From positions 64,001-127,851 of IMG/VR virus record IMGVR_UViG_2879469214_000003: a stretch of 63,851 nt of DNA; one strand, given 5' to 3'. The notes under the pieces were generated by a model, which made no database searches, was not told the origin of the DNA, and worked only from the letters and a program-made list of their open reading frames with translations. This stretch comes from a virus. Its lineage: Duplodnaviria > Heunggongvirae > Uroviricota > Caudoviricetes. Both the position numbers and the translations under genes were made by a program. How positions within the stretch are numbered: the first letter of the stretch is position 1; each line of letters opens with the position of its first letter. Below, one piece after another: positions 599 through 56,788 of the stretch.

Positions 599-652
599 AT
601 GTACACTCCTTTCAATTTCATAAATCTTTTCTCAGTAAATGATCGATTTTAT

Positions 653-847
653 CTAATCCTGATGGTCATATATGTATTCAAGTTCAAACTCCACATCTAA
701 TGCTTCTAATAAATCCTTTACAACATCTATGTAAATATCTGTGTATGTGCCAACCAACTCTTCATTAAGAATTAGCTCTGTTCCCCATTCTCCACAACAA
801 CCATCTGAGCAACTGTAGTGATATTCTCTGATTAAAATTTTGTTCAT
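653..847 (-). CDS. Hypothetical acidic phage protein
   Basis: ORF co-oriented with array; overlaps upstream stop. Confidence 0.65.
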   Translation of the reverse strand: MNKILIREYHYSCSDGCCGEWGTELILNEELVGTYTDIYIDVVKDLLEALDVEFELEYIYDHQD

Positions 848-972
848 TTGATTATCGCAACTATTAGTGCAGCGAATGACAATACAACAGATATGTATAA
901 AAGTAAGTAAATCTCAACGACACTCTTTAGATATTCCTTTTTCCATAGATACGCTTTAAACTTTTTAAACAT
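844..972 (-). CDS. 42-aa membrane peptide (not in ORF track)
   Basis: SD AAGGAG then MFKKFKAYLWKKEYLKSVVEIYLLLYISVVLSFAALIVAIIK*; stop overlaps next ATG. Confidence 0.65.
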   Translation of the reverse strand: MFKKFKAYLWKKEYLKSVVEIYLLLYISVVLSFAALIVAIIK

Positions 973-1282
973 AGTTACCACTCCTTTCTTGTTGAATTAT
1001 CAATTTCATTGAAAAATAAGTCTCTCAGTTTCTTCCATCCAAAGAACCTACGTGCTACTGGCTAGTTTTACACATAAATATAGGACTAAGATACTAAAAC
1101 CAAAGCAATCCCAAACAAAAAATTAGGTATTTGGGGTTCATTCAACATATAGTCCTATATATAATATGGTATAAAACATTACCATAAACACTATATGTAC
1201 ACCACAATACAATTGACTTATCTATATATGGTGTTGTAAGCTAATCTTGTTCCAATATTTTCTTTAGGACTAGGAGGTGAAT

Positions 1283-1432
1283 TTGTTGACAACTAGATCT
1301 AGCACTCGAAAGGTATCTTCTACTGCAATGTCTAAAAAGGCTTCTTCAGTTTTAAGAAGTAAATCCTCAAGTAAAACTGCCAAGTCTCTAGCAGGATCTG
1401 TTCTGGCACAATCTCGGTCAGGGCGCAAATAA
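1283..1432 (+). CDS. 49-aa Ser/Lys-rich basic peptide (not in ORF track)
   Basis: SD GGAGGTG, TTG start, LTTRSSTRKVSSTAMSKKASSVLRSKSSSKTAKSLAGSVLAQSRSGRK*. Confidence 0.65.
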   Translation: MLTTRSSTRKVSSTAMSKKASSVLRSKSSSKTAKSLAGSVLAQSRSGRK

Positions 1433-1457
1433 CTCTAATTCGAAAGGGGTCATTATA

Positions 1458-1589
1458 GTGACTAAAAAGATTAAGATTAACCTATCTGGGTCTAAATCCC
1501 AAATTAAAAGTCAGTTGAGAAAGGCTGAACGAGAGATTACGCGAGATATTGAGAGACAGTTAGAACGTCAGATCAACAAGTTGAGGTAG
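1458..1589 (+). CDS. 43-aa basic helical peptide (not in ORF track)
   Basis: SD AAAGGGG, GTG start, TKKIKINLSGSKSQIKSQLRKAEREITRDIERQLERQINKLR*. Confidence 0.6.
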   Translation: MTKKIKINLSGSKSQIKSQLRKAEREITRDIERQLERQINKLR

Positions 1590-1620
1590 TATCTCTTCAT
1601 TCTTCATAATCTTTTGACTC

Positions 1621-1646
1621 CTCCAGATGCCGGATAACATCTGGGG
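1621..1646. terminator. Hairpin between convergent units
   Basis: CTCCAGATG / CATCTGGGG stem. Confidence 0.55.
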
Positions 1647-1690
1647 GAACCTTATAAATTCTTTATTTGATTAAAACTTCTAAAGACTGT

Positions 1691-2056
1691 CTACTGCTCA
1701 TATGTATTAATAGCTTTCTCAATGTCACTTAGTATCTTTTTCATTTCTTCAGCATTCTTACTATAAACTGAACCACCACTTGATTTAATCTCAAACTTGA
1801 AGTCGTCTTTGTTCGTCTCTGGTTCAACTGGAACAGTGTTGTAAATCAGCGTTCCTTTTGGGAATGTCTTTTTAGTGTAACTGTCACAATAATCTTCTTT
1901 AAGTTCAGTTAAACCTTTACATCCTCTAATTTGTTTAACACTTTTCTTTGATCTAATCCAGCAATGACCGAGCGTTTTAAACTTATGAACCTCTAAGAGT
2001 AAACCTTCTCTTACTCGCCAAATATCTTTAATTGCGTGTGATTGTATTTTTTCCAT
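1691..2056 (-). CDS. Hypothetical phage protein
   Basis: 121-aa ORF in array. Confidence 0.65.
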   Translation of the reverse strand: MEKIQSHAIKDIWRVREGLLLEVHKFKTLGHCWIRSKKSVKQIRGCKGLTELKEDYCDSYTKKTFPKGTLIYNTVPVEPETNKDDFKFEIKSSGGSVYSKNAEEMKKILSDIEKAINTYEQ

Positions 2057-2393
2057 ATGTATCGATCCGTTTCTGAATTTTCTTTTTTATCCGATTGCTT
2101 TTAGTTTTAGTTAGGATACTTTGTAGTTGCTTGATTTTATATCCCTTCTCAATAGCCTTAACCATTTTTTCAACACTTCGCCACTCAACAATTAACTGAT
2201 CAACTTTATACTTCAGTCCTTCAACTTCTACTTCATCAGATACAGTTACGTTCATTTTCAAATCACTTGCTTTCACATTGCCTTGCATATCAATCTTAAA
2301 CTTTTCTTCCTCAAACACTTCTGCTGCTAATGGTTTAACTGGTGTACTAAATTTACTTGCTACCTTTTTGATGAATTCTTTAAATTTACTCAT
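2028..2393 (-). CDS. Hypothetical Lys-rich phage protein
   Basis: 121-aa ORF with upstream SD AAGGGG. Confidence 0.65.
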   Translation of the reverse strand: MSKFKEFIKKVASKFSTPVKPLAAEVFEEEKFKIDMQGNVKASDLKMNVTVSDEVEVEGLKYKVDQLIVEWRSVEKMVKAIEKGYKIKQLQSILTKTKSNRIKKKIQKRIDTYGKNTITRN

Positions 2394-2452
2394 TCGATTT
2401 CCCCTTGTTATGTGAATTTATGAGACTCTTTATTTCCGATGAAATACAGCTT

Positions 2453-2626
2453 TTACAGTGACTCTAATCGTTTGATTAACACCTGAACCTTTAACCCATA
2501 TTCAGTTCTACTTTCTTTTGCTGATTCAATTACTTTATCTATATCGCTCTGTCTAGAGACGATCTGTTTGACCATCTCATCCACAGAGGTTTCACTTATG
2601 TATTTGATGGTTCTAAGCCTGTCCAT
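2453..2626 (-). CDS. 57-aa hypothetical protein (not in ORF track)
   Basis: MDRLRTIKYISETSVDEMVKQIVSRQ...KRLESL*, start abuts gmk stop. Confidence 0.6.
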   Translation of the reverse strand: MDRLRTIKYISETSVDEMVKQIVSRQSDIDKVIESAKESRTEYGLKVQVLIKRLESL

Positions 2627-3154
2627 TTATCCTTTTGACTCAACTTTGATAATGTTTCGGATAATTTTCACTGCCTTATCAAAATCATAGTTAATTACTT
2701 GATAGTCGTAACGTTTCTTTTTAAATTTCAGTCCATCAGTATTAACTCGTGAAAGAATTCGAATTACATCGTCTCCACGCTTTTGCATACGTTTCATTCG
2801 TGTCTCTTTATCCACTTTCAGATAAATTACTACAAACTCGATGTCTTCCATACGCTTCTTCAAATCCTCGATACCTACAGGATCTACAACATAGATATCT
2901 GATAGCATTAGCTGCCGCTTAGTGGCGAAGTAGTGGTAGCCTTGAATTTGAGAATAAGCAGCAATTTCATCTTTTTCTTTAAATTTCTCATATTCCTCAT
3001 TATTGCAAAAAGTATGCCCCCATTCATTCTTATGTCTTTGTGGCCTTGTAGTATATGACTGTAAAACTTTGTATCCATCTTTCTCTAGCTCTTTTACAAT
3101 TTCAGTCTTGCCAGCTCCTGAATAAGCCATAATGCAAAATATCTTTTTCTTCAT
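2627..3154 (-). CDS. gmk: Guanylate kinase-like nucleoside monophosphate kinase
   Basis: P-loop AYSGAGKT, SYTTRPQR, GHTF, YHYFAT motifs. Confidence 0.85.
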   Translation of the reverse strand: MKKKIFCIMAYSGAGKTEIVKELEKDGYKVLQSYTTRPQRHKNEWGHTFCNNEEYEKFKEKDEIAAYSQIQGYHYFATKRQLMLSDIYVVDPVGIEDLKKRMEDIEFVVIYLKVDKETRMKRMQKRGDDVIRILSRVNTDGLKFKKKRYDYQVINYDFDKAVKIIRNIIKVESKG

Positions 3155-3171
3155 ATGTATACCTCGTTTTC

Positions 3172-3678
3172 CTAATCAATAATTCTAACCTTTATATGCT
3201 TCTTTCGACCAAAATTTAAAGCTTCTTTTTCAGTTTCAAAGTACACGTCAATCCGTTTATTCTTAATGTCTCCACCTTTATCTTGCACAACTCTTTCCCC
3301 TACTCCATCTATGTAAACACGAGTTCCCTTTGGGAGTACTCGCCAGTCAGCAGCTATGGTAACTCCTTCTTTGGTCTTTTCCCCGCTTGCTGTGATTCCA
3401 TAATCTGCATCGCCCTTATTCTTGCCAGTGCTATTTTCATGGTTGGAATATGCGGTTAATTCGAAATACATCCAATCATATTCACCATCACTTTTTTTGC
3501 TAGATACTACTTTTACTTGCTTAACTTCCTTTTTGACAACCTTCTTGGGCTCCGCCGACTGTTCAACTTTAACACTCTCAATCTTAGTCGTGTTTTTCGC
3601 TTCTCGTGCTTGATTGGCACTTTCTAATCCTGCCTGACCAATGGATAGTGCCAACAATAGAGATAGGAGTACTTCCAA
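3172..3678 (-). CDS. Secreted 3D-domain (lytic transglycosylase-like) protein
   Basis: Signal peptide; LTAY, TASG, IAADWRVLPKGT, DKGGDIKNKRIDVY 3D motifs. Confidence 0.85.
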   Translation of the reverse strand: MEVLLSLLLALSIGQAGLESANQAREAKNTTKIESVKVEQSAEPKKVVKKEVKQVKVVSSKKSDGEYDWMYFELTAYSNHENSTGKNKGDADYGITASGEKTKEGVTIAADWRVLPKGTRVYIDGVGERVVQDKGGDIKNKRIDVYFETEKEALNFGRKKHIKVRIID

Positions 3679-3755
3679 CGTATCACCTTCCTGATATTTG
3701 ATTATAGTAAAGCCCCACTATTTCAAGTGAGGCTATATGTGCAACTACATTAATG

Positions 3756-4277
3756 CTAAAGGATATTCCTGCCTTTTAATTCTTCCATTACTTTTAGGAG
3801 CTTTTCAGTGGCCTGTTGGGATAAAATTACTTCTGAATTACTAATGGTTATTAACTTTTCAACATTCGGCTGCTTATCCTCTGGCTTATAAAATCTCTCA
3901 ATACGATAGTGATTCAATTCATCTTCCAATTTTTTTGATAATGTCCTTCCATACTTGAACGATTCTTGGAGTTCTTCGGACATGTAATCAAGAAAAGTAC
4001 TATAATCAGTGACACATTGCAGTTCAGCATCCTCATCTTCATAGTAAAGTTTTGTTATATGCTCACTGATATCTGAATTACTGTTTACTTGCTTGATGTG
4101 CTCAATCATTCTATCTTTTAAACAACTTTTAACTTTAGCTTTTGGATCAACTTCGACCACTGAATAACTGGTGCCTAGGACTTCATAAAACACATTTGGG
4201 TTATCTTTCGAATAAACAACATCGCCCTTTTTAAGAACCATTGGGAGTGGGGTCCAGTTAACTTCAATATCTGACAA
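3756..4277 (-). CDS. Hypothetical phage protein
   Basis: 173-aa ORF with SD AGGAGG. Confidence 0.7.
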   Translation of the reverse strand: MSDIEVNWTPLPMVLKKGDVVYSKDNPNVFYEVLGTSYSVVEVDPKAKVKSCLKDRMIEHIKQVNSNSDISEHITKLYYEDEDAELQCVTDYSTFLDYMSEELQESFKYGRTLSKKLEDELNHYRIERFYKPEDKQPNVEKLITISNSEVILSQQATEKLLKVMEELKGRNIL

Positions 4278-4293
4278 AATACGTCCTCCTATT

Positions 4294-4340
4294 TATCTAT
4301 ATGTAGATCGGGATGTTTACTTCTGATCTACATATAGATA
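4294..4340. repeat. Perfect 16-bp inverted repeat (15-nt loop) in intergenic region
   Basis: TATCTATATGTAGATC ... GATCTACATATAGATA. Confidence 0.85.
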
Positions 4341-4380
4341 TTTATTCTTTATGAAATCTGTCTTATATGAACTCTATGTA

Positions 4381-5553
4381 TTATTCAGGTAACTTGAAAT
4401 CAGTAATGAACTTGACCGCTTTAGTAAGTGCATCAACATCTGTAACTGTCGGATATGCTGCTGTACCCATAAGCTTTTTAAACTCTGGAACGACAAACTC
4501 AGTGAGTTGAGCATGTGTAAAGCGTTCTTTTTGTTTATGAATAGATTCGATCAATTCCTCAGCGGTAAACTTGGCCTCTTCCTGCTCACCAAACTCTTTA
4601 GCTTGCTCATCGCGCTCTTGTTCCTGTTCAACTTTTAACTCATCAATATTTTTCGTAGTCTTTTTAAGTTGACCTTTAACAGCATCTTCAAACACTTTCA
4701 GGAAGTTTTTGGCGCTGTACTCTACTGGTTCCTCTGGAAGATCCGTATACCGACCACCTGCAATGGAAATATACTCTGTAGGACGGAACACCATAACAGT
4801 GCGAGTCTCATGGAAGTTACTTCCCTTTTCTCTTCCTTTTTTGTCCTTGATATTGTCTGACATCTCGTCACCATCTTTATTTGTTACAACTACTTCATTG
4901 AACAAGCAACAAATCAAACTAGCTTGTGATTCAAAGATTTTACGTGCAGTAGCATGCATCATTAATTCAACAGAGTTATATTTCATACCGTTATACAGAG
5001 TCGTTTCTTTTTCTTTTGTCCAGCCTAATCCAAGCAAGCCGTAACCTGCATTACGAAGAGCATCAAACGGTTTCTTCATTTCTTCATAAAGAGCTGTGTA
5101 TCCATTTTCTTTATTGCTTGATGCATCACCAAGATCCTGTAATGAAATAATTGATGGTTTACCATAGCGTTTTGCTCTATCCTTTAACAACCACGAAGTT
5201 GCTGCATCCACACATCGGTCAGCAGTATCAATACCAATGAGTTTTACAATTCTTCCTTCCTTGGCTTCTTTTACGAGACCCGGAACAACTTCTTTCTTGA
5301 AAAATTCCCATTGTTTCCATGCATCTTCATCTGATCCTTCTTTATGAATTGGAATGATGTTGTCCAATTCCCATGTCTCATATCCGGGCTCAAACGCCAA
5401 CAGGAGTGCCTCATCAGGTGAATTATAGTGTAGCTCAGTTACCTCTTTCCAAAGGCGTGTTTTACCTGTTTTGTATGTACCAACAATAAGACTCATGATT
5501 GAATGAAGTTCCACTTTAGGCGTATTTTTTTGTACTTTATTTCTCCAACTCAT
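4381..5553 (-). CDS. AAA-family NTP-binding protein (recombination-associated, SPbeta YorG-like)
   Basis: Walker A GTYKTGKT, Walker B IGIDTAD, AFEPG, C-terminal coiled coil; next to SSB-like gene. Confidence 0.75.
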   Translation of the reverse strand: MSWRNKVQKNTPKVELHSIMSLIVGTYKTGKTRLWKEVTELHYNSPDEALLLAFEPGYETWELDNIIPIHKEGSDEDAWKQWEFFKKEVVPGLVKEAKEGRIVKLIGIDTADRCVDAATSWLLKDRAKRYGKPSIISLQDLGDASSNKENGYTALYEEMKKPFDALRNAGYGLLGLGWTKEKETTLYNGMKYNSVELMMHATARKIFESQASLICCLFNEVVVTNKDGDEMSDNIKDKKGREKGSNFHETRTVMVFRPTEYISIAGGRYTDLPEEPVEYSAKNFLKVFEDAVKGQLKKTTKNIDELKVEQEQERDEQAKEFGEQEEAKFTAEELIESIHKQKERFTHAQLTEFVVPEFKKLMGTAAYPTVTDVDALTKAVKFITDFKLPE

Positions 5554-5576
5554 TTAAATAAATCACTCCATTTATG

Positions 5577-6149
5577 TTATTTTATTGTATTAAAGAAGTT
5601 CACATATTTCTCAATCAAATCCCATCTACCTGCAAACTCATGATACTTCTTCCCATTAGCATTTATTTCAATAGTGCTTACTCTTGCATAAACAGAAGGT
5701 ACTATGTATGTATTATCAATTTCTCCATTAACATCAAGCGCGAACAGCAGATAGATATCGCACGTTGGATTAGGTTTGTTTGTTGCAAATGTATGAACCA
5801 ACGACTTGTATTCATATGTCTTAGGGTTGGCGACTTTAACATCTATCTTTACGCAATTGTTAATTAAGAGGTCGAATGGATGTCTCAACGCCATTTTTTC
5901 TACTTTATATCCTAAAGACTCTAGCATATTTAGTGCATGAAACTCATAATCTATTCCCGTTTTCGAACATGAATCCTTAATCTCAAGATTTAAGTAGTTA
6001 GCCCATTCTCTAAAACCCTTATTTTTACAAATCGCACCTGCAAAACTGTAATTCTTATCTAACTCTACTATTTCGTTAAAAGTAGGCATACGATTTAGTC
6101 CTAATATCTCTTTCCTTTTAAGTATCCCTTCCTCAATTGACTTAAGTAT
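5577..6149 (-). CDS. PD-(D/E)xK endonuclease, probable free-standing homing endonuclease; likely ATA start
   Basis: PFDLLINNCVKIDVK core; frame extends 20 codons above the ATG at 6089 to an ATA 7 nt after GGAGGTG. Confidence 0.65.
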   Translation of the reverse strand: MLKSIEEGILKRKEILGLNRMPTFNEIVELDKNYSFAGAICKNKGFREWANYLNLEIKDSCSKTGIDYEFHALNMLESLGYKVEKMALRHPFDLLINNCVKIDVKVANPKTYEYKSLVHTFATNKPNPTCDIYLLFALDVNGEIDNTYIVPSVYARVSTIEINANGKKYHEFAGRWDLIEKYVNFFNTIK

Positions 6150-6200
6150 ATTTTCTCACCTCCTTTGATAAGAAAGTGAGAAAAACAATAGTTAAATTAA

Positions 6201-7346
6201 TTATTTGAATGGATCATCGCTGTCGTTAGAGAATGGATCATTCCCAACTTGACTAAACGGGTCATCGGATTTATTTGTGTTGTTAAACGGATCGTCGCTT
6301 GTCAGTGTTGCTGTTTTTCTAAATTCCTCTTCAGTCAACAGCTCACGCATAATACTACCTTGTACATAGCTAATTACTTCCAATCCCTTTTTGTCTCCGT
6401 TGGTTACACGTTCTTGACGAGTTACTTTCTCATCGCTATCAACTTGACTAAATGGGTCATCAGAGGGAATCTCTTCAACAATATCTACATAAGCAAATGT
6501 TGCTCTGTTATTGTCTTGACCTGTTACTTCAATAAAATCATATGTATTAAGTGATGCGAATGCATCTGCCATTGGAATACCTTTCTCTACTTCTTTATGG
6601 TATACCATGAGTTCCACATCTTTCGGTTCGGAACGTTCTTTCCCATAATCTAAAAACACTGCATTAACTTTTGTGTCTTTGTTTTCATCTTGATATGTAC
6701 TACGAATTCCTAATTGCATACTAAAGTAATTTACTTCTCGGAATGCTTCACTATTGAAGTCTGTTACATAATCAAATTCTTGTCCTGCATGTTTTACTGT
6801 CTGTGTTGTGCCGTCATCATTTACAAGCAATCCATCTTTAATTGGTCTAATTGATGAAATAACTCGTTTAACAAATACTTTCTCTTCGGCGCTATTGTCT
6901 GGAGTAAATGTATCGAACTGGTATTGACCGCGAACTTCGTACCATCCATCCTCCTCGACCATTTGACCAAGACGCTCTGTCTTATCCCAATCTACTTCAA
7001 TTGCGTGATATGAATCATCAGGAAACTTTGTTTTATCATTGCGGTCTGCCCACACAACTTTAGCAGCCTTATTATTTGCACGACTGTATGGATAAGCGAA
7101 AGGTTGTTCCATGCCCGCAAGTTCAACTCGTAGTCGATTACTCAATGCTGTTTCAATTTCGAACTGGAGTACTCGACGCGGCTTATTCGTACGAGTAGTT
7201 GTTTCTTGATAAATCGGTTGCTTTTCCCAACTATCAGTTACTGGATCTTTCTTATTTACTGCACTAACTTTACCAATAAAACGAAACGAACTCTTAAACT
7301 CTTTACCTTGATGATTTTTGTTTACCTTGATTTTGTAGTCTGCCAT
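6201..7346 (-). CDS. Putative single-stranded DNA-binding protein
   Basis: Beta-rich OB-like segments, acidic tail with repeated DDPF motifs, adjacent to AAA ATPase. Confidence 0.55.
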   Translation of the reverse strand: MADYKIKVNKNHQGKEFKSSFRFIGKVSAVNKKDPVTDSWEKQPIYQETTTRTNKPRRVLQFEIETALSNRLRVELAGMEQPFAYPYSRANNKAAKVVWADRNDKTKFPDDSYHAIEVDWDKTERLGQMVEEDGWYEVRGQYQFDTFTPDNSAEEKVFVKRVISSIRPIKDGLLVNDDGTTQTVKHAGQEFDYVTDFNSEAFREVNYFSMQLGIRSTYQDENKDTKVNAVFLDYGKERSEPKDVELMVYHKEVEKGIPMADAFASLNTYDFIEVTGQDNNRATFAYVDIVEEIPSDDPFSQVDSDEKVTRQERVTNGDKKGLEVISYVQGSIMRELLTEEEFRKTATLTSDDPFNNTNKSDDPFSQVGNDPFSNDSDDPFK

Positions 7347-7619
7347 TAATTAATTTTATCTCCCTTTGTGTATATGTATTTTTTGATTGGTGTCTCTCTA
7401 GATAATCAGTTACATTGGAGGACTTCTCAATCTGCTCGTCATTTGTTCCACCACCTTTTCAAAATGAACTTGCTGCCTCTATATAATCACGCAAAGCGTG
7501 TTATTTTAATCTCCGTCATTCTTTCATATGCTCTCTTATGCTTCTCTATTCAAATCCAATTTCTTGATGAAACTATTATTTGACTAACTTCTTCTGTTCT
7601 TCGTTTAACTTACTCTCTT

Positions 7620-7664
7620 AATATAATCCAAATCATTTGTATTGTAAAGTATTATTTTAGTGTA
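7620..7664 (-). promoter_or_regulatory. SigA-like promoter with upstream TACACTAAAATAATAC box
   Basis: TTTACA-17-TATATT on minus strand, box abutting the -35. Confidence 0.7.
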
Positions 7665-7687
7665 TTTATTTTACCGGGAAATCCCGG

Positions 7688-8140
7688 CTACATAAACTTC
7701 ATGGCAAATCTATCGAATCTAATTTCTGGTTCTGCAACATGCAACTCATAAATAACTCTAGTATCATTGCATTGGAATCTTTCCAATTGGTATTCGCTAA
7801 GACACTCTTGAAATAGTCGCTCCAAGGAACTCTTACGATCTTTTATATATGTATCATTAAAATTTTCATAAGAGTCGAAGCGAGTCATCTTTATCATCTC
7901 TTTTCTGTATCCATATAAAAAGGAGTGAATAAATTCAGTAGATTTGTCTTTGCAGTTATCTACAAAATAGTCCATGTTTCCTTTAAACATAAACTCGACC
8001 ATGTTTAAAAAAGTTCCAGCTCTCTTGCTAACCCCCAAAATCTCCATGACTTGTTGCATATGCTCATACCTCTCTCGTAAAAATGTATTTTCTGGATGTA
8101 AATTCTTCCTATGTACAAATTTTAATCCATCTTTATACAC
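7688..8140 (-). CDS. Hypothetical protein downstream of Agr-like cassette (start may be ATG at 8059)
   Basis: 150-aa ORF; GAGGT SD precedes the internal ATG at 8059. Confidence 0.6.
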   Translation of the reverse strand: MYKDGLKFVHRKNLHPENTFLRERYEHMQQVMEILGVSKRAGTFLNMVEFMFKGNMDYFVDNCKDKSTEFIHSFLYGYRKEMIKMTRFDSYENFNDTYIKDRKSSLERLFQECLSEYQLERFQCNDTRVIYELHVAEPEIRFDRFAMKFM

Positions 8141-8333
8141 TTGACAATCATATTTGGTAGGTGACTAAATTGTATTGACATATGCATAAATATGGAATCG
8201 ATCCCATAATAGTGTCGTAAAATGTCGACACTGTGTTTTACAGAACTAGTGTTCGTATTTATTATACAACAAATCCTTTGGTATAACTATACTTACTTAG
8301 AAACATAACCTGATCTTCTATGTATTTAGCTGT

Positions 8334-8711
8334 TTACTTACCAAACAGCTTTTTAATATAATTCTTTACTAATTCTATCTTGCTTTGGGCTATCGTTATG
8401 TACTCTTTTCTTTCATCATCAAAGTACACTTTACCTGTTTCATAGTCTACATCTTTCATCTTATAGAGGTTTCCTAGAATTCCTGAGTCGGTCAACATCA
8501 TACCTTCACGTTCATTCATTAACTTTAAAAATGCATCATTGCTATCGGATCTTATAAACTCTCCGTAACTGGTGTAGATAACGACCTTGTAATCTCCCTT
8601 TTTAAACAACTCTCTTCTGCACTGCCTAATGTCATCCACATCTAGCCATTCAGCAACATCACTTATTTTTTTACCCTCTCTCCTTTGAACCATAATTCTA
8701 TCTCTTATCAA
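8334..8711 (-). CDS. Stand-alone LytTR DNA-binding domain protein, no receiver domain
   Basis: 125 aa; VIYTSYGEF and LTDSGILGNLYKMKDVD resemble the LytTR RxHRSxLVN..I motif; follows agrBD. Confidence 0.7.
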   Translation of the reverse strand: MIRDRIMVQRREGKKISDVAEWLDVDDIRQCRRELFKKGDYKVVIYTSYGEFIRSDSNDAFLKLMNEREGMMLTDSGILGNLYKMKDVDYETGKVYFDDERKEYITIAQSKIELVKNYIKKLFGK

Positions 8712-48130: not shown

Positions 48131-48133
48131 TAG

Positions 48134-49354
48134 GTGTTGCTATTGAATTCAATTAGCGACTACAAAAAAAGAATTGGTAAACAAAAGAATGTTGAGACTG
48201 CGACAGTTAAACATGCAAAACACTCAATCAAAACTTTTTTTCGGCACTCACCATCTTTTGAAGAAGTATTGTTAAATAATGATGAAGTAAAAGTTCCGGT
48301 TCAGATTGTGTCCGATGCAAAAATACCAACTGTAAAAACTATATTGATGGAGCCCGATTATTCTATTAAAGCTGGACATAGCATCAAGCGATCAAATAAT
48401 GAAATTTGGCTTTGCCTTAGCGATGACCCCAATGATGTATATGTCAGTGGAAAAATTGAAAGATGTAATTTCGATTTAAGGTGGATCGACCAAGATGGGT
48501 TTATCCAGTCCTTCCCCTCTATCCTATACTTCAATGCACGTTCAAATTTTGGTACTGAAGAAGATAAGCTAATGAACCTTCCTGCTGGACGTAGACAAAT
48601 TGTAGTGAGTAAAAATGTTGAAACACAATTAATACAACGTGACACACGTTTCATTATTGGTAGCGAAGCATTTAAGGTAATTGATACCGATTATATGTCT
48701 GATGATGGATTGGTTAATCTTAGCTTACAGTCTGATCAAATTGATCCAGTCAAAGACAATCTGGAATTGGGTATTGCTGATTATAATAAACTTAGTAAAT
48801 ATGAATTGATTATTCTTAATGACAATCCATTATCCCTTAGTGCTCACCAATCCGCAAAAATCAACGTCAAAGTATTGAAAAATGGGACTGAAACAATTAA
48901 TCCTCAACTTGAATATTCAAGTTCCAATACTGATTTAGTCAGTGTCGATGAACAAGGGATTGTTACTATTCATGAATCTGGTGAAGTAACTATAACTGTC
49001 TCAGCGTATGGAATTGAAAAACAACTGAATATTTATGTAGCCCACACTATCCATTATGACTATGACGCTACAATAGACGGAGCAAATGATATTTACTTAA
49101 ACCGCGAGTCTACATATGTAGCTAGTTTTTATAATAATGGTATTAAAATTTCTGATGAAAGTTCATTTTCATTAACAAATTTGGATGGCTCCCCTACTCT
49201 CCTCGCCTCAATAACCTCGCAAGATCCTATAGCAAATGCATGCACAGTCAAAGCTAACAGTATTCGTAAATTAGGTACTGTTATTTTACATGTTAAAAAT
49301 GCTAATGGACTGTCTTCGGGACAGAAAGAAATAAAAATTAAATCACTAATATAA
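48134..49354 (+). CDS. Head-closure-like protein with Ig-like (Big_2) domain
   Basis: YSSSNTDLVSVDEQGIVT Ig motif. Confidence 0.55.
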   Translation: MLLLNSISDYKKRIGKQKNVETATVKHAKHSIKTFFRHSPSFEEVLLNNDEVKVPVQIVSDAKIPTVKTILMEPDYSIKAGHSIKRSNNEIWLCLSDDPNDVYVSGKIERCNFDLRWIDQDGFIQSFPSILYFNARSNFGTEEDKLMNLPAGRRQIVVSKNVETQLIQRDTRFIIGSEAFKVIDTDYMSDDGLVNLSLQSDQIDPVKDNLELGIADYNKLSKYELIILNDNPLSLSAHQSAKINVKVLKNGTETINPQLEYSSSNTDLVSVDEQGIVTIHESGEVTITVSAYGIEKQLNIYVAHTIHYDYDATIDGANDIYLNRESTYVASFYNNGIKISDESSFSLTNLDGSPTLLASITSQDPIANACTVKANSIRKLGTVILHVKNANGLSSGQKEIKIKSLI

Positions 49355-49366
49355 AGGAGCGTGTAC

Positions 49367-49879
49367 ATGGGACAAGCTATTGTAAGACTTGGAGAACTTA
49401 AACCGGAGAGATTTGTTGAAGGTTTAGTAAACAACTATCTGGTATATTCTCCTCTTCCGCTATCTAAGCAACATTCATCAGGCTTAGATGGTGACATTGT
49501 AATGAGTGCAACTCCAACACTTGAGATCATTGATGCAGATCTAGATGTAGCTATCAATCCTCAATACGAGTATGTTTACTCAGTAGGTACTGATAACAAG
49601 CTCAAAGTTGCCTTTGACAAGTCTAAACATACTAACAAAGGTAGCGCAATTGATGCTTTGAAATGTGTTAGCGTGATTTATGAGCAAGGAGAATTGATTG
49701 TTACAGGTAACGAATATATTCTCACTGTACATAACAGCCGTGGAGAAGAAATTCACAGGACTGTACCACAATCGCCAGCACAGCTATTAACAGTTATGTC
49801 TACGTTTGACGACACCCGTCAAGTCGATGAAGTTGGTCCTCTCGATTATAAGATACGCCGAAATTATACTGTAAAGTAG
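49367..49879 (+). CDS. Hypothetical structural-module protein
   Basis: ATG at 49367 after AAGGAG. Confidence 0.55.
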   Translation: MGQAIVRLGELKPERFVEGLVNNYLVYSPLPLSKQHSSGLDGDIVMSATPTLEIIDADLDVAINPQYEYVYSVGTDNKLKVAFDKSKHTNKGSAIDALKCVSVIYEQGELIVTGNEYILTVHNSRGEEIHRTVPQSPAQLLTVMSTFDDTRQVDEVGPLDYKIRRNYTVK

Positions 49880-49886
49880 GTGTACT

Positions 49887-50357
49887 ATGTCTAGATTCGA
49901 GAGTATAGCAAGAGATAAAACAACCGTTATTGACAAGATACTTTCTTCTAATGAAATCATGAAAGCTCTGAAGTATAATGAATTAAATTTCCTTGAGCAA
50001 CCAGACTTTGATAATGCCTCTTTACTTTACAGTTCGCTGTTCCCCCATCGCTTCATCCCCGGAACCTCTGATCAGAAAAAGACATATATAACTATCTCCT
50101 TTGGTAAGTATAGACCGACTAAATCCTCTTTTAAAAGTGGACTGATCACATTTAGCGTTTTTACCCATCAAGATCTATTTAGAACAGCTTATGGTTGTCT
50201 TCGTACAGATTATATAATCACAAAGCTAGATGAGATATTTAATGAAGCTGAAGGTTTAGGTGTCGGTAAGGCAGAGTTTTATGATATGGATGCTCTAAGC
50301 ATGAACCCTGATTATCATGGCTCATACATAAGTTACAAAGTGTGTGATTTCAATTGA
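49887..50357 (+). CDS. Tail terminator-like protein
   Basis: 156 aa, position before tail tube. Confidence 0.5.
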   Translation: MSRFESIARDKTTVIDKILSSNEIMKALKYNELNFLEQPDFDNASLLYSSLFPHRFIPGTSDQKKTYITISFGKYRPTKSSFKSGLITFSVFTHQDLFRTAYGCLRTDYIITKLDEIFNEAEGLGVGKAEFYDMDALSMNPDYHGSYISYKVCDFN

Positions 50358-51073
50358 TAGAAGTAGATCGGTTAGCTTTGTTTTTGGGTAACCCTTATAC
50401 ATTGGAATCTGGCTTGAGAGTTTTCTCACCTACGGTTAACGATATCTCCTTGGTTGGGTATCAGGATTACATGATAAAGCTTACATTATGTTCGTTTGAC
50501 AAAAATATGATATTGTCTGATTTATTTGGAGTTTCAGATGATGCAATTAACGAAATTTCTGAGCTAGATGATTTTGAGATATTAACCAGCGAGGAGGCAA
50601 TTAGAAACCACATTGCAAGCTCGCTTAGTTTCTTTGTTCGTGGTGAAGTTGAATTTGACCCCATTTATCAAGCATTCATGTTAGAAGATAGAGTTTTAAT
50701 TTCTAAAAATAACTATTTAAAAGTTGCAGACGTAATTAAGCAATTGAATTGCAGTAAGGCTGAGTCTGAGAAACTCAACACAACAAGCAGCAAGGCTAAA
50801 GAGATGTTGAAGAAAATGATGATGTTTGAACAAAAACAAAAGAAACAAGATGATGGACTTGATTTTAAAGATATCCTCTCTGTTCTTTGTGCTGCCAACG
50901 GGAATGGAATAGATATCTTCAACGTTAAGAATCTGACTATTTACCAAGTTTATGAGCAGTTCGAACGTTTAACTACCAAAGACAGCTTTGATCGTATACT
51001 GCCCGTATGGGCAAATGGACACTTAGGAAAAGACGATCAACTTCCTGAATGGATCAAAAAAACAAAATTATAA
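50354..51073 (+). CDS. Hypothetical tail-module protein
   Basis: 239 aa. Confidence 0.55.
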   Translation: MIEVDRLALFLGNPYTLESGLRVFSPTVNDISLVGYQDYMIKLTLCSFDKNMILSDLFGVSDDAINEISELDDFEILTSEEAIRNHIASSLSFFVRGEVEFDPIYQAFMLEDRVLISKNNYLKVADVIKQLNCSKAESEKLNTTSSKAKEMLKKMMMFEQKQKKQDDGLDFKDILSVLCAANGNGIDIFNVKNLTIYQVYEQFERLTTKDSFDRILPVWANGHLGKDDQLPEWIKKTKL

Positions 51074-51093
51074 TTTAATACGGAGGTTTTTTA

Positions 51094-51885
51094 ATGGCTC
51101 TACATCTTGATCGTTACGGTTCACGTAACAATCTCAACTTACAAATCTTCAACTATGTTTCTAGTACGCCCAATGTGCTTGATCCAATTATGACATTTGA
51201 TTATGCCACCACCACTAGCAATGAGTGGACTGGTGAAACTGTATATAGTCGCGGTGGAGATGGAAACCCAAAACGTCACTCTTGGTCTGGGGACAAAGAC
51301 TCTACATTGACAGTCGAAACACAAGTTTTTACATTCCAGCACTTGGCGATGCTTGCAGGAGAACCAATCCAACACGGCGCTCAGAATATCAATAAATCTG
51401 AGGTACTGACTGTCGAAGATGATGGCAGTGGAGGCAAACAAGTAACTCTTACTAAGACTCCGATTGGTGGAGCAGGTACAGTTAGCGTATTCTCGTATAT
51501 CGGTGGTATTAAAACAGACACCCAAGAGATTGATTCTGTGACGGGCAGTGTAGTGAAACTTGCAAGCACATCCACATCTAATATTGGTGAAGATGTTGAA
51601 GTTTACTACCAATTCACTGTAGCTAATGCTGCTAAGCTTTCTTATACCACTAAAGGTTTCCCGGGCTATGTTAAACTCATTGGTGATACTGTGTATGCTG
51701 AAGAAATTGGTGGCGATATTACCTCTTCTCAACAAATCTATTATAAAGCAAAATTGCAACCAAACTTCACTGTCACATATTCTCCTACAGGAGATCCAGC
51801 ATCCTTAACTCTGGTGTTTGATTTGTTCCCTGTTCGAATTAATGGTGTTGAAGTTATGAAAGATGAGATTATCTATAAAGATTAA
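51094..51885 (+). CDS. Major tail (tube) protein
   Basis: 263 aa, beta-rich, strong SD, terminator after. Confidence 0.65.
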   Translation: MALHLDRYGSRNNLNLQIFNYVSSTPNVLDPIMTFDYATTTSNEWTGETVYSRGGDGNPKRHSWSGDKDSTLTVETQVFTFQHLAMLAGEPIQHGAQNINKSEVLTVEDDGSGGKQVTLTKTPIGGAGTVSVFSYIGGIKTDTQEIDSVTGSVVKLASTSTSNIGEDVEVYYQFTVANAAKLSYTTKGFPGYVKLIGDTVYAEEIGGDITSSQQIYYKAKLQPNFTVTYSPTGDPASLTLVFDLFPVRINGVEVMKDEIIYKD

Positions 51886-51895
51886 AATACATATG

Positions 51896-51928
51896 GGCTG
51901 AGTCTAATTGGCTTAGCCCTATTTTTTT
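51896..51928 (+). terminator. Terminator after tail tube gene
   Basis: GGGCTGAGTC / GGCTTAGCCC then T run. Confidence 0.7.
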
Positions 51929-51940
51929 CTAGGAGTAAAC

Positions 51941-52693
51941 ATGAAGACAATAACAATAGCTGCACCAGTCCGTAATAGAGCATGGATACTTCCACAGTAT
52001 TTGTTGAAGATATTTGAGATCAATTATCCCAAATCTTTAATCGATCTACATTTTGTTGTTAATGATAGTTTAGACAGAACATTTGAATTGTTGACAGAAT
52101 TTAAAAAAGACCACAAGGGATTGTATAACAACATCCGAATAGACGTAATTAACAATGGTATACCCGAAGATGAACGTGAGTTTTCAGTAAGAAATAAATA
52201 CATATATAAGAGTTTGAGCAACTTAAAGAATTACATTATGAGCAAAGTTCGAACCGATAAATTGATTTTTATCGATACAGATATCCTTGTAAAACCTGAT
52301 GTTATTACTAAGTTACTCAAACATGGGAAGAAAATTATATCGGGATTAATTTACAACGGGTATCTGACCAATAATGATAAGCCATTTCTATACCCAAACA
52401 TTATGCAGTTAGATGACAAAGGGCAATATCGTCATATTACAAACTATCACGTTAAGACTGCCCCTGCTCTACTCTGTTCAAAATTGCAACGCGTGGATTT
52501 AACAGGAGCAATTATTTTATTGGATAAATCAGTGTATAAGTCTATAAAATACGGATTTCATCCACAAGGAGAAGACGCACACTTTTGTAAGATGGCTCAA
52601 GACAATGGCTTTGAGCTTTTTTGCGATTTGTTTGCCTATAGTCAGCACATTATGTCACCAGAACAATTAAGGGAGTTTATAAGGAGAAAATAA
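51941..52693 (+). CDS. GT-A (family 2-like) glycosyltransferase
   Basis: IAAPVRNRAWILP, VVNDSLD, FIDTDI (DxD), GED. Confidence 0.85.
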   Translation: MKTITIAAPVRNRAWILPQYLLKIFEINYPKSLIDLHFVVNDSLDRTFELLTEFKKDHKGLYNNIRIDVINNGIPEDEREFSVRNKYIYKSLSNLKNYIMSKVRTDKLIFIDTDILVKPDVITKLLKHGKKIISGLIYNGYLTNNDKPFLYPNIMQLDDKGQYRHITNYHVKTAPALLCSKLQRVDLTGAIILLDKSVYKSIKYGFHPQGEDAHFCKMAQDNGFELFCDLFAYSQHIMSPEQLREFIRRK

Positions 52694-52695
52694 AT

Positions 52696-53838
52696 TTGTT
52701 ACTAACTGAAACCGTAACTGTTAAAACAAATCCTAGGAGCTACAAACACTATTTGAATAAGGGATACTCAGTTAAGTGCGGAGGAACAGTATGTGTAAAA
52801 GTAGAAGACTTAACCCCAAGCAGCACTGTTGTAGTGTCAGTAAAGTGTGATTATTGCAGTAATGTTATTGATAAAAAATACTATAAATATTATAGATCTC
52901 ATAACAAACAATCGATAAATAAAGACTGTTGCAGTAAGTGTAATATGGAAAAAGTTAAAGAGACAAATCTTCTACTTTATGGAGAAGAGCATTGTATGAA
53001 AGTAGAGTCAATAAAAAATAGAGCTCAACAAACCAATCTGACCAAGTATGGATTCATAACGCCCTCCTCCTCAGATCTGGTTAAAAATAAAGTCAAGAGC
53101 ACTAACAGAAATAGATATGGAGTTGACTATTATTCTCAAACGAAAGAGCACATTGAGACAGTAAGAAATACATGTCTTAGGAAATATGGTGTGAGCGCAT
53201 ATTCACAAACAGAAGAATGCCGTATAAAAATTAAAAATACTTGTTTAAAAAAGTATGGCGTAACCCATCATACAAAATTAGAAAAAATCCAGAATAAAAA
53301 ACGAAAAACAAATTTATTAAAATATGGTGTTGAGAATTTACTACAAGATAAAGAAGAACTTAAAAAGAGAAAGATTAAAGCAACGCTAACATTATCAAAA
53401 AATGGAACAGTCAATACATCTAAACAGCAATTATATTTACATAGGTTAATAGGTGGAAAAATCAACTATCCAGTTGACAGGATTATGATTGATATTTTGA
53501 AGGATAATATCGCAATTGAATATGATGGAACTGGACACGACATCCCTGTTAAATATGGTAGAGTCTCAAAGAAGGAATTTAATTTAAAAGAATTAAAAAG
53601 AGATAAATTTTTGAATTCGAGAGGCTACAAAGTTTTAAGAATAAAATCTCTCACACAAACAAAACTTCCCGAAGATAGCATTATTGTCAAATTAGTTAAT
53701 GAAGCAACAATTTTATTTCAAAATGAGGATTTTAAATGGTTCGAAATAAATCTCGATGAGAATTGTGTTCGCTATAAAAATGTGAAAATTGACTATGATT
53801 TCGGAGCACTTTTCGAAATCAAAACTATAGGAGCTTAA
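52696..53838 (+). CDS. Free-standing homing endonuclease-like protein (Zn/KYG repeats plus Vsr/PD-(D/E)xK domain)
   Basis: KCDYC, six KYG-type repeats, IDILKDNIAIEYDGTGH. Confidence 0.7.
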   Translation: MLLTETVTVKTNPRSYKHYLNKGYSVKCGGTVCVKVEDLTPSSTVVVSVKCDYCSNVIDKKYYKYYRSHNKQSINKDCCSKCNMEKVKETNLLLYGEEHCMKVESIKNRAQQTNLTKYGFITPSSSDLVKNKVKSTNRNRYGVDYYSQTKEHIETVRNTCLRKYGVSAYSQTEECRIKIKNTCLKKYGVTHHTKLEKIQNKKRKTNLLKYGVENLLQDKEELKKRKIKATLTLSKNGTVNTSKQQLYLHRLIGGKINYPVDRIMIDILKDNIAIEYDGTGHDIPVKYGRVSKKEFNLKELKRDKFLNSRGYKVLRIKSLTQTKLPEDSIIVKLVNEATILFQNEDFKWFEINLDENCVRYKNVKIDYDFGALFEIKTIGA

Positions 53839-53839
53839 A

Positions 53840-54847
53840 ATGAAACAAAAAACTATTTTGTACCCATGCACGTTAGACTATTCGTTTCTTTTTCAGCGAC
53901 CCCAACAGATATTGAGGCAACTTGCTAAGTTGGGGTGGCGTGTCATATTTTGCAATAATACTCAATCAGGCAGAACTCCAGAAGAAGTGGAGCCAAATTT
54001 GTTTGTATACCACAATTTCGAAGAAGTTTTGTCTTTAATAAAACATAATAAAATAAAAATAGATGTTTTTTATTATACATGGGCCAAATCAGCTCAGTTT
54101 GCAGATAATATAAAAGCAAAAATCAACATTTACGATTCAGTTGATTCTTTTTCTGATTGGTATGAATTCGAAGAGTATGCAACTAAGAGAGCGGATATTG
54201 TATTAACTTCAAGCCAATTCCTATTTGATCTTCGAAGTAAAGATAAAGATAGTACGTATTTAATTAGAAATGCTTGTCCCGAAGACTATATCGACCACCC
54301 TTCTCAGGTTCCTGATGAGTATAAAAAATTGAGTGGTCCCATTGTTATTTTTTCGGGGGCTATTGGATCGTGGGTCGATACACGACTTATACGAAAAGTT
54401 GCAAATAGATATACTACAGTTCTAGTCGGTCAGGAATTTGGTAAGGAGTGTCCTTCTAATGTACTAAAATTAGGAACCAAATCGCATGAAGATTTATACA
54501 ATTACTATGCTCATGCTGATGTTTGCTTGCTACCATTTAACACGAAGCTAGAAATTACTCAGGCTGCATGTGCAATCAAGATGTTTGAACATATGGCTGC
54601 GGGTAAAATCACCGTTGCTACAAAATGGCTGGAAACTGACTTGTATCCCGATGCAGTACTGACCTCAGAATCGGATGAAGAATTTCTTCAGAATGTTGAT
54701 CGTGCGATAGAGATGGCAAAGCTCGATTCACACAAGCAGACTTGTATAGATTACGCAAAAAGAAACACATGGGAATTAAGAGTTAAACAAATTGAGGAAG
54801 CAATTGAGGAATATTCACTGAAAAGTGGTGTTGTGATTGGGTCTTAA
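53840..54847 (+). CDS. GT-B (GT4-like) glycosyltransferase
   Basis: FLFQRPQQI, YDSVD, FSGAIGSWVD, IKMFEHMAAGK. Confidence 0.85.
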   Translation: MKQKTILYPCTLDYSFLFQRPQQILRQLAKLGWRVIFCNNTQSGRTPEEVEPNLFVYHNFEEVLSLIKHNKIKIDVFYYTWAKSAQFADNIKAKINIYDSVDSFSDWYEFEEYATKRADIVLTSSQFLFDLRSKDKDSTYLIRNACPEDYIDHPSQVPDEYKKLSGPIVIFSGAIGSWVDTRLIRKVANRYTTVLVGQEFGKECPSNVLKLGTKSHEDLYNYYAHADVCLLPFNTKLEITQAACAIKMFEHMAAGKITVATKWLETDLYPDAVLTSESDEEFLQNVDRAIEMAKLDSHKQTCIDYAKRNTWELRVKQIEEAIEEYSLKSGVVIGS

Positions 54848-55808
54848 AGTTTTATTCACGAATAACAGTGCATTGATAAAATATGGTATATCTTCAGGAT
54901 TTAATAACCTTGGACACGAAGTATATATTATGGATGGAAAATATCAGTTGTGGGACAAAGATAAGGAAACTCAAGTTGAGTTGTTTAAAGAATACATAGA
55001 GAACAATCATGTAGATATAGTGTTCTCCGAATGCTTCGCTAACTTTGCCGAAGGTATATTCGAGCATACAAAAGAAAAGGGAATATTCCATGCATTGTGG
55101 TGTATAGAGGATACCCCATTCGACCATTGGATTGGTGACTACTGGTCTGATTATGCTGATTACATTTTTACAACAACTGCCGAATGTCTGCCTAACTATT
55201 GGAATAAAGGTAAATCTGCTGAATTGATGTTGTTTGGATGTAATCCTGATTTTCACAAGCGAGTCGATACAAGTATCCATAGAGACATTGTGCTAATTGC
55301 CAATAACTATGAACGTAGATTTGAGCAGACTAAAAAGTTCATTATGCCAGTTGTAGATCATGGTTATGATGTAAGCATATTTGGTAATGAGTGGTGGATG
55401 GATTCTAACCGTGATGTAAATTTGCTGAACCATCCTTCCACTTACAAAGGATATGGAGCATATGAAGATCTTCCATATTTGTATTCAACGAGTAAGATAA
55501 TTCTTGGGCAAAATTTAGATGACAAGTCAATTACTCAAACATCAATGAGACCTGCGGAAAGCTTAGGAATTGGAGGAGGCATTCTAATCTCCCCTTTCAC
55601 CCCTGCACAGCAATATCTATTCCATGATCATGTCTACCTGCCTAGAAGCACTGATGAGATGTTATTGATGATTGAAGAAGTGTTGAATATGACAGATATA
55701 CAACGTGAACAGAAAGCAAAAAAAGCACAGGATTTCGTGTACAAGTATCACAATTACAATTTAAGAGCTGAACAAGTGATCAATGCTTATCATGGTTACA
55801 AACCTTAA
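54837..55808 (+). CDS. CgeB-like GT-B glycosyltransferase
   Basis: WCIEDTP, FGCNPDFHK, SMRPAESLGIGG, HNYNLRAEQV. Confidence 0.8.
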   Translation: MGLKVLFTNNSALIKYGISSGFNNLGHEVYIMDGKYQLWDKDKETQVELFKEYIENNHVDIVFSECFANFAEGIFEHTKEKGIFHALWCIEDTPFDHWIGDYWSDYADYIFTTTAECLPNYWNKGKSAELMLFGCNPDFHKRVDTSIHRDIVLIANNYERRFEQTKKFIMPVVDHGYDVSIFGNEWWMDSNRDVNLLNHPSTYKGYGAYEDLPYLYSTSKIILGQNLDDKSITQTSMRPAESLGIGGGILISPFTPAQQYLFHDHVYLPRSTDEMLLMIEEVLNMTDIQREQKAKKAQDFVYKYHNYNLRAEQVINAYHGYKP

Positions 55809-55821
55809 GGGAGATGAATAA

Positions 55822-56304
55822 ATGGCAAAATCAAATAAACTAACACTTGCTAAGTTAAATACGGTTGATAATAAAAAGAATCAGCGCAAGACAATTTATG
55901 TGACTCCTGAGCGATATGAAGTAAATATTCATACATTCTTCCGAGAGTCATTTATGGAAGATGTCGTTGCCGAGTATATGACATTCGTTGAGGATTTAAG
56001 AAGCAATAAAGAAATTGACGATGCGTTGATCCGTGGAACACTTAGTCTATTTAATGTGTTAGTGATGAAGAAATTTACCGATATGCCATTCCCAAGAAAG
56101 ATAAATTTGAGCGGATTGATCGGCCTCGCTCGAAAATTTATGGACAATGGTATTACAAATGAAGTTATTAATTCCTTCCCTAAAGAGGAAATGAAGAAAC
56201 TTGAAGATCGTTTCAAAGCAGCTCAACAAAATGCAGCTAAAGTGATTGCTGAAATGGCGGTAGCCTCTGTTGCACAAGCTCAGGAAATTTCTGATGCAAG
56301 TTAA
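55822..56304 (+). CDS. Putative tail assembly chaperone
   Basis: 160 aa helical, upstream of tape measure. Confidence 0.4.
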   Translation: MAKSNKLTLAKLNTVDNKKNQRKTIYVTPERYEVNIHTFFRESFMEDVVAEYMTFVEDLRSNKEIDDALIRGTLSLFNVLVMKKFTDMPFPRKINLSGLIGLARKFMDNGITNEVINSFPKEEMKKLEDRFKAAQQNAAKVIAEMAVASVAQAQEISDAS

Positions 56305-56719
56305 GACGCAACAGGATCTAGTCAAATTCCTACAAAAGTTGAATCAGCCTATTGCACAAGCATTGAGTAATGATGTGGCTAAGACAGTTAAGACAGTCAT
56401 GAAGGAAAAAGTTAAAGAAGAAGTCTATGACGTATATGAGCCTACCATGTATTCTCGTACAGGATTATTAGGTAGTGAAGACAGCATGAAATCAGAACTG
56501 ATCAATGACACCACTTTAATAGTTGAGAATGTTCGTTCAGATGGCGATAGAAATGTTGCTGAAGTTGTGGAGTCAGGCCAGAATTATCAATACGGATTTG
56601 AGTATGCAGGAGTACCTCGCCCATTTACCGAAGCAACACGAGAAGAGTTGAGGAATACTGGAGCTCACAAAGCAGCTATGTATAAAGGATTAAAATCTCA
56701 AGGAATCAATTTGAAATAA
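56270..56719 (+). CDS. HK97 gp10-like tail completion protein
   Basis: VYEPTMYSRTG, PRPFTEATREEL; ATG at 56294 probable. Confidence 0.55.
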   Translation: MHKLRKFLMQVKTQQDLVKFLQKLNQPIAQALSNDVAKTVKTVMKEKVKEEVYDVYEPTMYSRTGLLGSEDSMKSELINDTTLIVENVRSDGDRNVAEVVESGQNYQYGFEYAGVPRPFTEATREELRNTGAHKAAMYKGLKSQGINLK

Positions 56720-56788
56720 TAGAACACAGGGAGCGTGTTATTTATGGCATTGGAAAGTTACGATCAATATACATAAGGATGATGTTAA

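Follow-up and report, generated by a model that had tools for sequence, protein, structure and literature searches.

Does a phage keep, across its messages, the exact word that a cellular toxin ribonuclease (RNase) cuts, and is that word held there by selection? The question is raised by a stretch of 63,851 nucleotides (nt), hereafter the window, which comprises bases 64001–127851 of the 127,851-bp provirus IMGVR_UViG_2879469214_000003 and corresponds to the end of a 2.79-Mb contig in NCBI assembly GCA_003833245.1; counts given for the whole provirus refer to the full 127.8 kb. An earlier note on this DNA had pointed to the pentamer TACAT as the UACAU cleavage site of the Bacillus MazF toxin EndoA, recurring in sense-strand leaders and between Shine-Dalgarno sites and start codons. 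Our analysis confirms that observation and partly supports its MazF interpretation. The enriched unit is the hexamer TACATA, in excess on the message strand only, in early and late genes alike, and conserved between relatives. Genes were taken from public gene calls and a self-trained caller; the two shared 96 of 98 stops and, for these 96, 80 starts. The genes lie on the minus strand as far as about position 34,900 and on the plus strand beyond.

All 31 TACAT sites previously named are present on the correct strand, two of them displaced by one base (8320 rather than 8321, and 37839 rather than 37838). Over both strands the window contains 261 copies against 200 ± 15 expected, a count reached in none of 100 dinucleotide shuffles, and these divide into 160 sense and 101 antisense copies (binomial P = 3e-4). 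Intergenic sense copies number 50 against 24 expected, which ranks TACAT sixth of the 1024 pentamers. Ahead of it stand three Shine-Dalgarno words, CCCCC and ACATA, which overlaps it; the half of the genome outside the window replicates this result (42 against 15.5, rank 3). The statement that the sites lie always on the coding strand was an effect of site picking, as the window also holds 21 intergenic antisense copies of TACAT.

When the copies are split by the following base, TACATA alone is enriched and sense-biased, and TACAT is therefore only the core of the signal. TACATA occurs 97 times in sense and 24 times in antisense orientation in the window, and 204 and 47 times in the whole provirus, where the corresponding counts are 32/60 for TACATC, 39/26 for TACATG and 58/67 for TACATT; TACAT outside ATACATA is unbiased (205 sense, 198 antisense). 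Across the coding sequences (CDSs) of the whole provirus we counted 141 sense copies of TACATA against 62.5 under synonymous-codon shuffling (z 9.9), while TACATC, TACATG, TACATT and the antisense hexamer TATGTA all stay near 1.0 relative to the null (antisense 35 against 35.5). The intergenic sense excess is larger, at about 5-fold (63 against 13.3 expected, whole provirus) compared with about 2.2-fold in CDSs. In coding DNA, none of the other 16,384 heptamers rises as far above the synonymous null as ATACATA, with a z of 10.3 compared with 5.3 for the nearest unrelated word. Genes hold 85 copies of it, distributed over all three reading frames, where synonymous-codon shuffling yields 30 and codon shuffling 14. 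The same heptamer is the most strand-biased in all sense sequence (128 to 8), and the most sense-biased octamer is AATACATA (76 to 0), of which 29 copies are intergenic and sense in the whole provirus against 1.8 expected, with none in antisense.

EndoA/MazF of B. subtilis cuts only U/ACAUA, as a strict hexamer, and this specificity is shared by the Listeria enzyme and, mainly, by that of S. aureus (PMC11780869; bioRxiv 10.64898/2026.08.06.743204). The proposed match to the MazF word thus stands, with the hexamer in place of the pentamer as its unit, and 25 of the 31 named sites are full hexamers. The others are 21883, 46211 and 49364, all of which read TACATG, together with 35228, 38420 and 39879. 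The first three overlap start codons, including that of the major capsid gene at 46211, and had been counted as MazF sites; TACATG is neutral in every genome, and that assignment falls.

The distribution of the hexamers along the genome speaks to how they might act. The coding excess is even across the early and late blocks (2.16- to 2.34-fold), which indicates transcriptome-wide tagging rather than a leader-specific device; sites do occur in leaders and spacers as first described, but they are not special to them. Hexamers are also more evenly spread over cistrons than random placement would give (102 site-free units against 117 ± 5), and predicted single-strandedness is slightly higher at the sites than at hexamers of the same composition (0.34 against 0.30, P = 6e-4). 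The 60 nt preceding starts hold 54 hexamers in all, and ten of these (in 10 of 232 genes) lie at position -5, where UACAU abuts AUG and the final A of the hexamer is the A of the start codon. TACAT is in fact the commonest pentamer directly before starts in this provirus; there are five such cases in Geobacillus virus E3, one in the sampled host chromosome and none in SPO1, and SPbeta and phi3T have none at -5 and a few at -6 or -8. The five cases of TACAT followed by ATG in the earlier description all precede real starts, four of them in the public gene calls and one in our own (table).

We next asked whether other genomes share this signal. CDS sense counts of TACATA relative to the null are 149/75.7 in E3, 114/53.4 in SPbeta and 108/49.5 in phi3T. 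'Paenibacillus sp. NPDC057886' (G001), which we used as a stand-in for the true host, carries a prophage with a 98%-identical capsid protein in which sense TACATA reaches 137/62.5; 400 kb of its chromosome show no excess (41/48.9). This genome encodes a chromosomal mazE-mazF pair, the toxin aligning over its full length to EndoA (E = 7e-63). The enriched word is the MazF motif itself, and its message-strand excess exceeds both composition- and codon-matched nulls and the level in this related host chromosome. The whole genome of the virulent B. subtilis phage SPO1 (NC_011421; 40% G+C) shows the opposite, a tenfold depletion of CDS sense TACATA (3/34.5, z -5.4) next to antisense counts of 70/58.5, which looks, on these counts, like strong avoidance of MazF cleavage. 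TACATA is low in SPP1 and phi105, on counts too small for a verdict. That phages of MazF-bearing hosts should select for a hexamer in some cases and against it in another would be hard to explain without the RNase.

Conservation was assessed in the NPDC057886 prophage, with which only some 50 kb of the provirus can be aligned (80% identity), and six control hexamers served for comparison. Sense TACATA is intact in the relative at 49 of 78 sites, twice as often as the control hexamers (56 of 177; Fisher P = 4e-6), and retention of the sister words is 36% for TACATT, 23% for TACATC and 33% for TACATG. Judging from this alignment, the sites are held by purifying selection. The 35% G+C of the provirus and its A-rich sense strand could suggest that no selection is involved and that the words simply follow from an AT-rich composition, from codon usage or from dipeptide content, and simple composition shuffles of the kind used in the literature can mislead here. 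Against this, the excess survives synonymous-codon and whole-codon shuffles as well as order-1 and order-3 Markov expectations, sister hexamers of nearly identical composition are neutral, and SPO1 moves in the opposite direction. With the synonymous null, the heptamer scan and conservation above background all pointing the same way, we rejected a composition or codon artifact and regard it as highly improbable.

We therefore favor, with a probability of roughly 0.7, the explanation that the sites are copies of UACAUA multiplied and kept by selection on the message strand as targets of MazF, that is, of the chromosomal EndoA-type enzyme of Bacillota. Sites would then be kept in coding regions, leaders and the spacers between Shine-Dalgarno site and AUG, and with so many of them on the message strand, phage mRNAs would be far more MazF-sensitive than host mRNAs. 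On the phi3T model, free MazF would collapse phage expression while the cell survives, pushing the infection toward lysogeny. A single cut at a hexamer abutting an AUG or a Shine-Dalgarno site would detach the ribosome-binding site either from its start codon or from the RNA upstream. For phi3T, a lysogeny-promoting effect of MazF activity is documented (PMC10769878; bioRxiv 10.1101/2023.04.27.537455), as the earlier note had it; for SPbeta itself, a preprint reports lysogenization independent of MazF. The broader proposal of a transcriptome programmed for MazF is borne out in part, by the exact motif, its restriction to the sense strand, its conservation, its lack of excess in a related host chromosome and its avoidance in SPO1.

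The window does encode a MazF of its own, as had been proposed (table). Its gene comes first in the repressor operon, and the protein is a probable source of MazF activity, whether it cuts RNA itself or titrates host MazE and so releases the host toxin; the phage would in this way provide the MazF arm itself. It matches PF02452 over profile positions 1–109 of 109 with 87.8 bits (cut-off 23.1), and its best solved relative is EndoA (PDB 4MDX, E = 1e-23). Of the residues for catalysis and RNA contact in MazF-Bs, Gly18, Arg25, Pro26 and Thr48 are kept, as are PTHV and LLEQ, and Glu20, in the β1-β2 loop, is replaced by Val. Its Paenibacillus clade comprises at least 16 proteins, with Val for Glu20 in all 16 aligned. 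Members of this prophage-type clade read GSVQ in the β1-β2 loop where EndoA reads GSEQ, and the position preceding Arg25 is variable (E, Q, V or L). In MazF-Da the substitution E20A abolished activity, and the changed loop may have altered the specificity and activity of the phage MazF. Its coding sequence contains no hexamer, and its leader contains two. A cognate antitoxin was sought next to the gene: there is no upstream open reading frame (ORF) on the same strand, and the downstream 68-amino-acid ORF has no family match.

Several findings weigh against selection by an EndoA-type MazF. The excess extends into the repressor operon, this phage showing no partition between lytic and lysogenic genes, although the lysogen-expressed cluster I of SPbeta is lower (1.47). 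A search with the MxxxYxEM helix motif of AimX/YosL/MazE-like inhibitors, in strict and relaxed form, found none in the provirus or the NPDC057886 prophage, though the published model needs such an inhibitor for lytic growth; this was a motif search, and a diverged inhibitor is possible. The same search does find YosL and AimX in SPbeta and phi3T, plus one candidate in E3, where the ORF at 70916–71185 (-) of NC_029073 carries the motif (EAMARGYREMAIINL) and thus encodes a candidate anti-MazF protein. No excess of TACATA is seen in 21 kb of structural genes from a P. cremeus relative (4 against 3.6 expected), a sample too small to weigh. Counter-oriented genes, pooled from four phages over 16.3 kb, hold 12 hexamers in gene-sense and 16 in the regional orientation, which fits read-through lytic transcripts and a polar signal at the DNA level equally well. 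Finally, the motif exceeds the known hexamer: an A precedes 63% of the copies (ATACATA in 128 of 204), where the background is 37%, and A is frequent at -2 as well, a preference that could reflect a factor other than an EndoA-type MazF.

Such a factor would be another sequence-specific reader of RNA that recognizes a word of 7–8 nt, (A)AUACAUA, the candidates being an RNA-binding protein and the phage's own diverged MazF, if its specificity has changed or lengthened; the overlap with EndoA would then be partial or inherited. The strong A at -1 and -2, seen also in the 76-to-0 bias of the octamer, the clade-wide change of Glu20 to Val in a loop that covers the RNA, and the fact that known MazF proteins read 3 to 7 bases all lend this possibility some weight. 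However, we found no phage MazF in SPbeta or phi3T, which nevertheless show the same twofold hexamer excess with a weak preference for A at -1 (44–45%), and SPO1 avoids the hexamer whatever the upstream base, which suggests that selection comes in all these phages from the host enzyme. We consider a different reader unlikely, while giving it some room. We place slightly less weight still on a self-contained translation switch. In this reading the phage's own diverged MazF, expressed as the first gene of the repressor operon behind a leader with two UACAUA sites, would cleave UACAUA itself or set off its cleavage, possibly in connection with the neighboring Agr-type peptide signal instead of arbitrium, and the ten genes with UACAU|AUG would be turned leaderless and not simply destroyed. 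Stepwise 5' trimming by 2 nt has been described in B. subtilis (PMC11780869), and a cut followed by such trimming at UACAU|AUG would leave mRNAs that start exactly at AUG.

A further alternative places the signal in DNA. TACATA could be a polar element, as motifs of the Chi, KOPS or SRS type are, following the direction of the genome arms, serving replication, recombination or packaging or consisting of weak MrpR half-sites, and sense-specific only because genes and arms are co-oriented. Beyond the counter-oriented genes, it is favored by the exact flip of orientation at the divergent junction near 34950 and by the presence of ATACATA within the MrpR operator of SPbeta. We know of no DNA process that uses the word TACATA. 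The discrimination at position 6, where only A is accepted, matches an RNase specificity measured independently in vivo, and the tenfold depletion in SPO1 affects the sense strand only; we judge a DNA-level origin to be a rather improbable account.

The operator itself, SPBRE, is a 15-bp element found at about 10 SPbeta promoters (PMC10516654). It resembles the sites studied here in containing ATACATA, in its intergenic positions and in belonging to an SPbeta-type phage, but it lies antisense to the downstream gene within conserved flanks, whereas the copies in this provirus are sense-oriented, number about 200, lie mostly in genes and share only A-A in their flanks; intergenic sense copies here lack the 15-bp context, and the SPBRE copies of SPbeta are antisense and promoter-bound. 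We thus rejected SPBRE membership, given heterogeneous flanks here and the extended ATACATAttatttgtattt context in SPbeta. The SPbeta antisense intergenic copies of ATACATA (table) all stand in the context tatATACATAtt(a/t)tttgtatttg, at promoters reported as MrpR/SPBRE sites. They are a separate thing from the sense excess, being SPBRE operators of MrpR, and in this context the transcribed strand of the operator carries the MazF word in reverse complement.

Table. Coordinates of hexamer sites, genes and gene blocks discussed in the text; positions are those of the window unless another genome is named.
Feature	Position	Strand	Remarks
Minus-strand block of early and small genes	1..34950	-	66 sense TACATA: 27 intergenic, 39 in CDSs (CDS null 17.5, synonymous shuffling)
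Plus-strand block: YonO RNA polymerase, packaging, structural genes	34951..61000	+	31 sense TACATA: 7 intergenic, 24 in CDSs (CDS null 10.3)
UACAUA ending on the first base of the ATG of ORF 389–598	598..603	-	gtgTACATatg; own gene call
UACAUA overlapping the ATG of gene 1691–2056	2056..2061	-	public gene call
UACAUA overlapping the ATG of gene 2627–3154 (guanylate-kinase-like)	3154..3159	-	3 nt past GAGGT; public gene call
UACAUA overlapping the ATG of gene 14150–15040	15040..15045	-	right after GGGGGA; public gene call
UACAUA overlapping the ATG of gene 32053–32301	32301..32306	-	public gene call
UACAUA between Shine-Dalgarno site and start of the yopQ-like (DndB-family) gene 11223–12545	12547..12552	-	2 nt before the ATG
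TACATAAGGAG arrangement, hexamer abutting a Shine-Dalgarno site	22545..22550	-	also 24289, 25608, 28071 (-) and 56770 (+)
Two UACAUA in the leader/promoter region of the phage MazF gene	13407..13443	-	13407–13412 and 13438–13443
TACATG overlapping the major-capsid ATG	46211..46215	+	not the MazF hexamer; likewise 21883–21887 (-) and 49364–49368 (+)
PemK/MazF homolog, 121 amino acids	12998..13363	-	about 45% identical to EndoA-type MazF; Pfam PF02452, E = 7e-25
68-amino-acid ORF between the MazF and yopQ-like genes	12722..12928	-	sole nearby antitoxin candidate, unproven; no family match
YopQ-like and MrpR (master repressor) homologs, sro-type lysogeny operon headed by the MazF gene	10220..12545	-	Pfam DndB, MrpR_N_CB, MrpR_C_cat
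SPbeta antisense intergenic ATACATA	64141, 66429, 68719, 68783, 76209, 77898, 83421, 99594, 110914, 116163, 129218		SPbeta genome positions

The gene content of the window identifies the provirus as SPbeta-like. Public gene calls include the Pfam families YonK, YonJ, YonG, YonB, YomX, YomW, YomV, YomU, YomO and YomN, to which are added a YonO-type (RdRP-type) RNA polymerase at 35269–37845 and the YopQ-like and MrpR pair. The lineage is distant, its capsid protein being 42% identical to that of E3 and about 26% to those of SPbeta-group phages, and a near-identity search of a phage collection with this DNA gave no match. The NPDC057886 prophage (G001:C4:40001-200000) extends over at least 160 kb of low-GC DNA (0.33–0.37 against about 0.47 in the host) and exceeds this provirus in size.

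Directly downstream of the MrpR repressor gene lies an Agr-type peptide cassette (8334–10081, minus strand) with an AgrB homolog at 8910–9440 (Pfam E = 4e-20), a 44-amino-acid ORF (8779–8913) and two unassigned ORFs; no arbitrium genes turned up in the Pfam listings examined. A repeated box, TTACACTAAAA, is found at 1870, 18170 and 21221 on the minus strand and at 10116 on the plus strand, with 12 copies at no more than one mismatch against 3.9 expected, and may be a promoter or operator box. In the small-gene array at 15329–23900 (minus strand), hairpin-like tgaaa-N-tttca motifs recur just 5' of Shine-Dalgarno sites, for example atgaaaggattctttcat before the gene at 18731–19039.

These results bear on how MazF activity leads to lysogeny in SPbeta-type infection, a route described as 'an uncharacterized mechanism' (PMC10769878). 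Selection appears to target UACAUA precisely, on the message strand, across lineages of Bacillus, Geobacillus and Paenibacillus phages, and the conserved phage sites, together with the opposite trend in virulent SPO1, would make MazF-sensitive phage transcripts a concrete and testable design principle. They would also provide a simple signature, readable from the genome, to predict whether a phage exploits MazF or evades it. Specific experiments are suggested by the placements in leaders and at start codons and by the presence of a MazF on the phage itself instead of the MazE-binding sro genes.

Among known systems, the closest precedent is the report that ORFs of phi3T and SPbeta are enriched in UACAU (Guler et al., bioRxiv 10.1101/2023.04.27.537455; Nat Microbiol 2024 9:150), and the principle is therefore already known. 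In its preprint form, that study considers the pentamer in ORFs only, with composition shuffles, and proposes that phage RNA is more MazF-sensitive than host RNA (bioRxiv 10.1101/2023.04.27.537455); our own counts show the same twofold excess for the two phages of that study. The provirus shares with these phages the SPbeta-like group (Yon/Yom structural genes, YonO, MrpR and YopQ), the core of the motif and the message-strand excess. The present analysis differs in the hexamer-exact signal, the roughly 5-fold intergenic excess, the start-abutting class and the conservation between relatives, and the phage itself in belonging to a distant Paenibacillus lineage without a recognizable AimX or YosL but with its own MazF homolog and an Agr-type cassette. 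In the literature, the journal version of Guler et al. aside, we did not find hexamer-exact selection, the intergenic and start-abutting classes, site conservation, the extension to Paenibacillus and Geobacillus, the avoidance in SPO1 or a phage-borne MazF.

With respect to the B. subtilis EndoA/MazF-MazE system (ndoA-ndoAI; PDB 4MDX and 4ME7), the phage protein belongs to the same Pfam family and retains the residues and motifs listed above, whereas its clade has Val at position 20, and the gene lacks an upstream antitoxin gene and is prophage-borne. Its genomic position recalls the sro genes. In the SPbeta group, sroA and sroB (yopM/yopN; phi3T_92/93) encode MazE-binding, lysogeny-promoting proteins at the head of the SPbeta repressor operon, and phi3T_93 binds MazE and frees host MazF as an all-helical dimer that mimics only the MazE-binding surface of MazF (PMC10769878). 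The phage MazF gene and the 68-amino-acid ORF occupy roughly the place of yopM and yopN, directly upstream of the yopQ-like gene and mrpR on the same strand, whereas in SPbeta yopO and yopP lie in between. Unlike phi3T_93, the phage gene encodes a true member of the PemK/MazF family that keeps the catalytic Arg and Thr, and by analogy its MazF fold would be expected to bind MazE.

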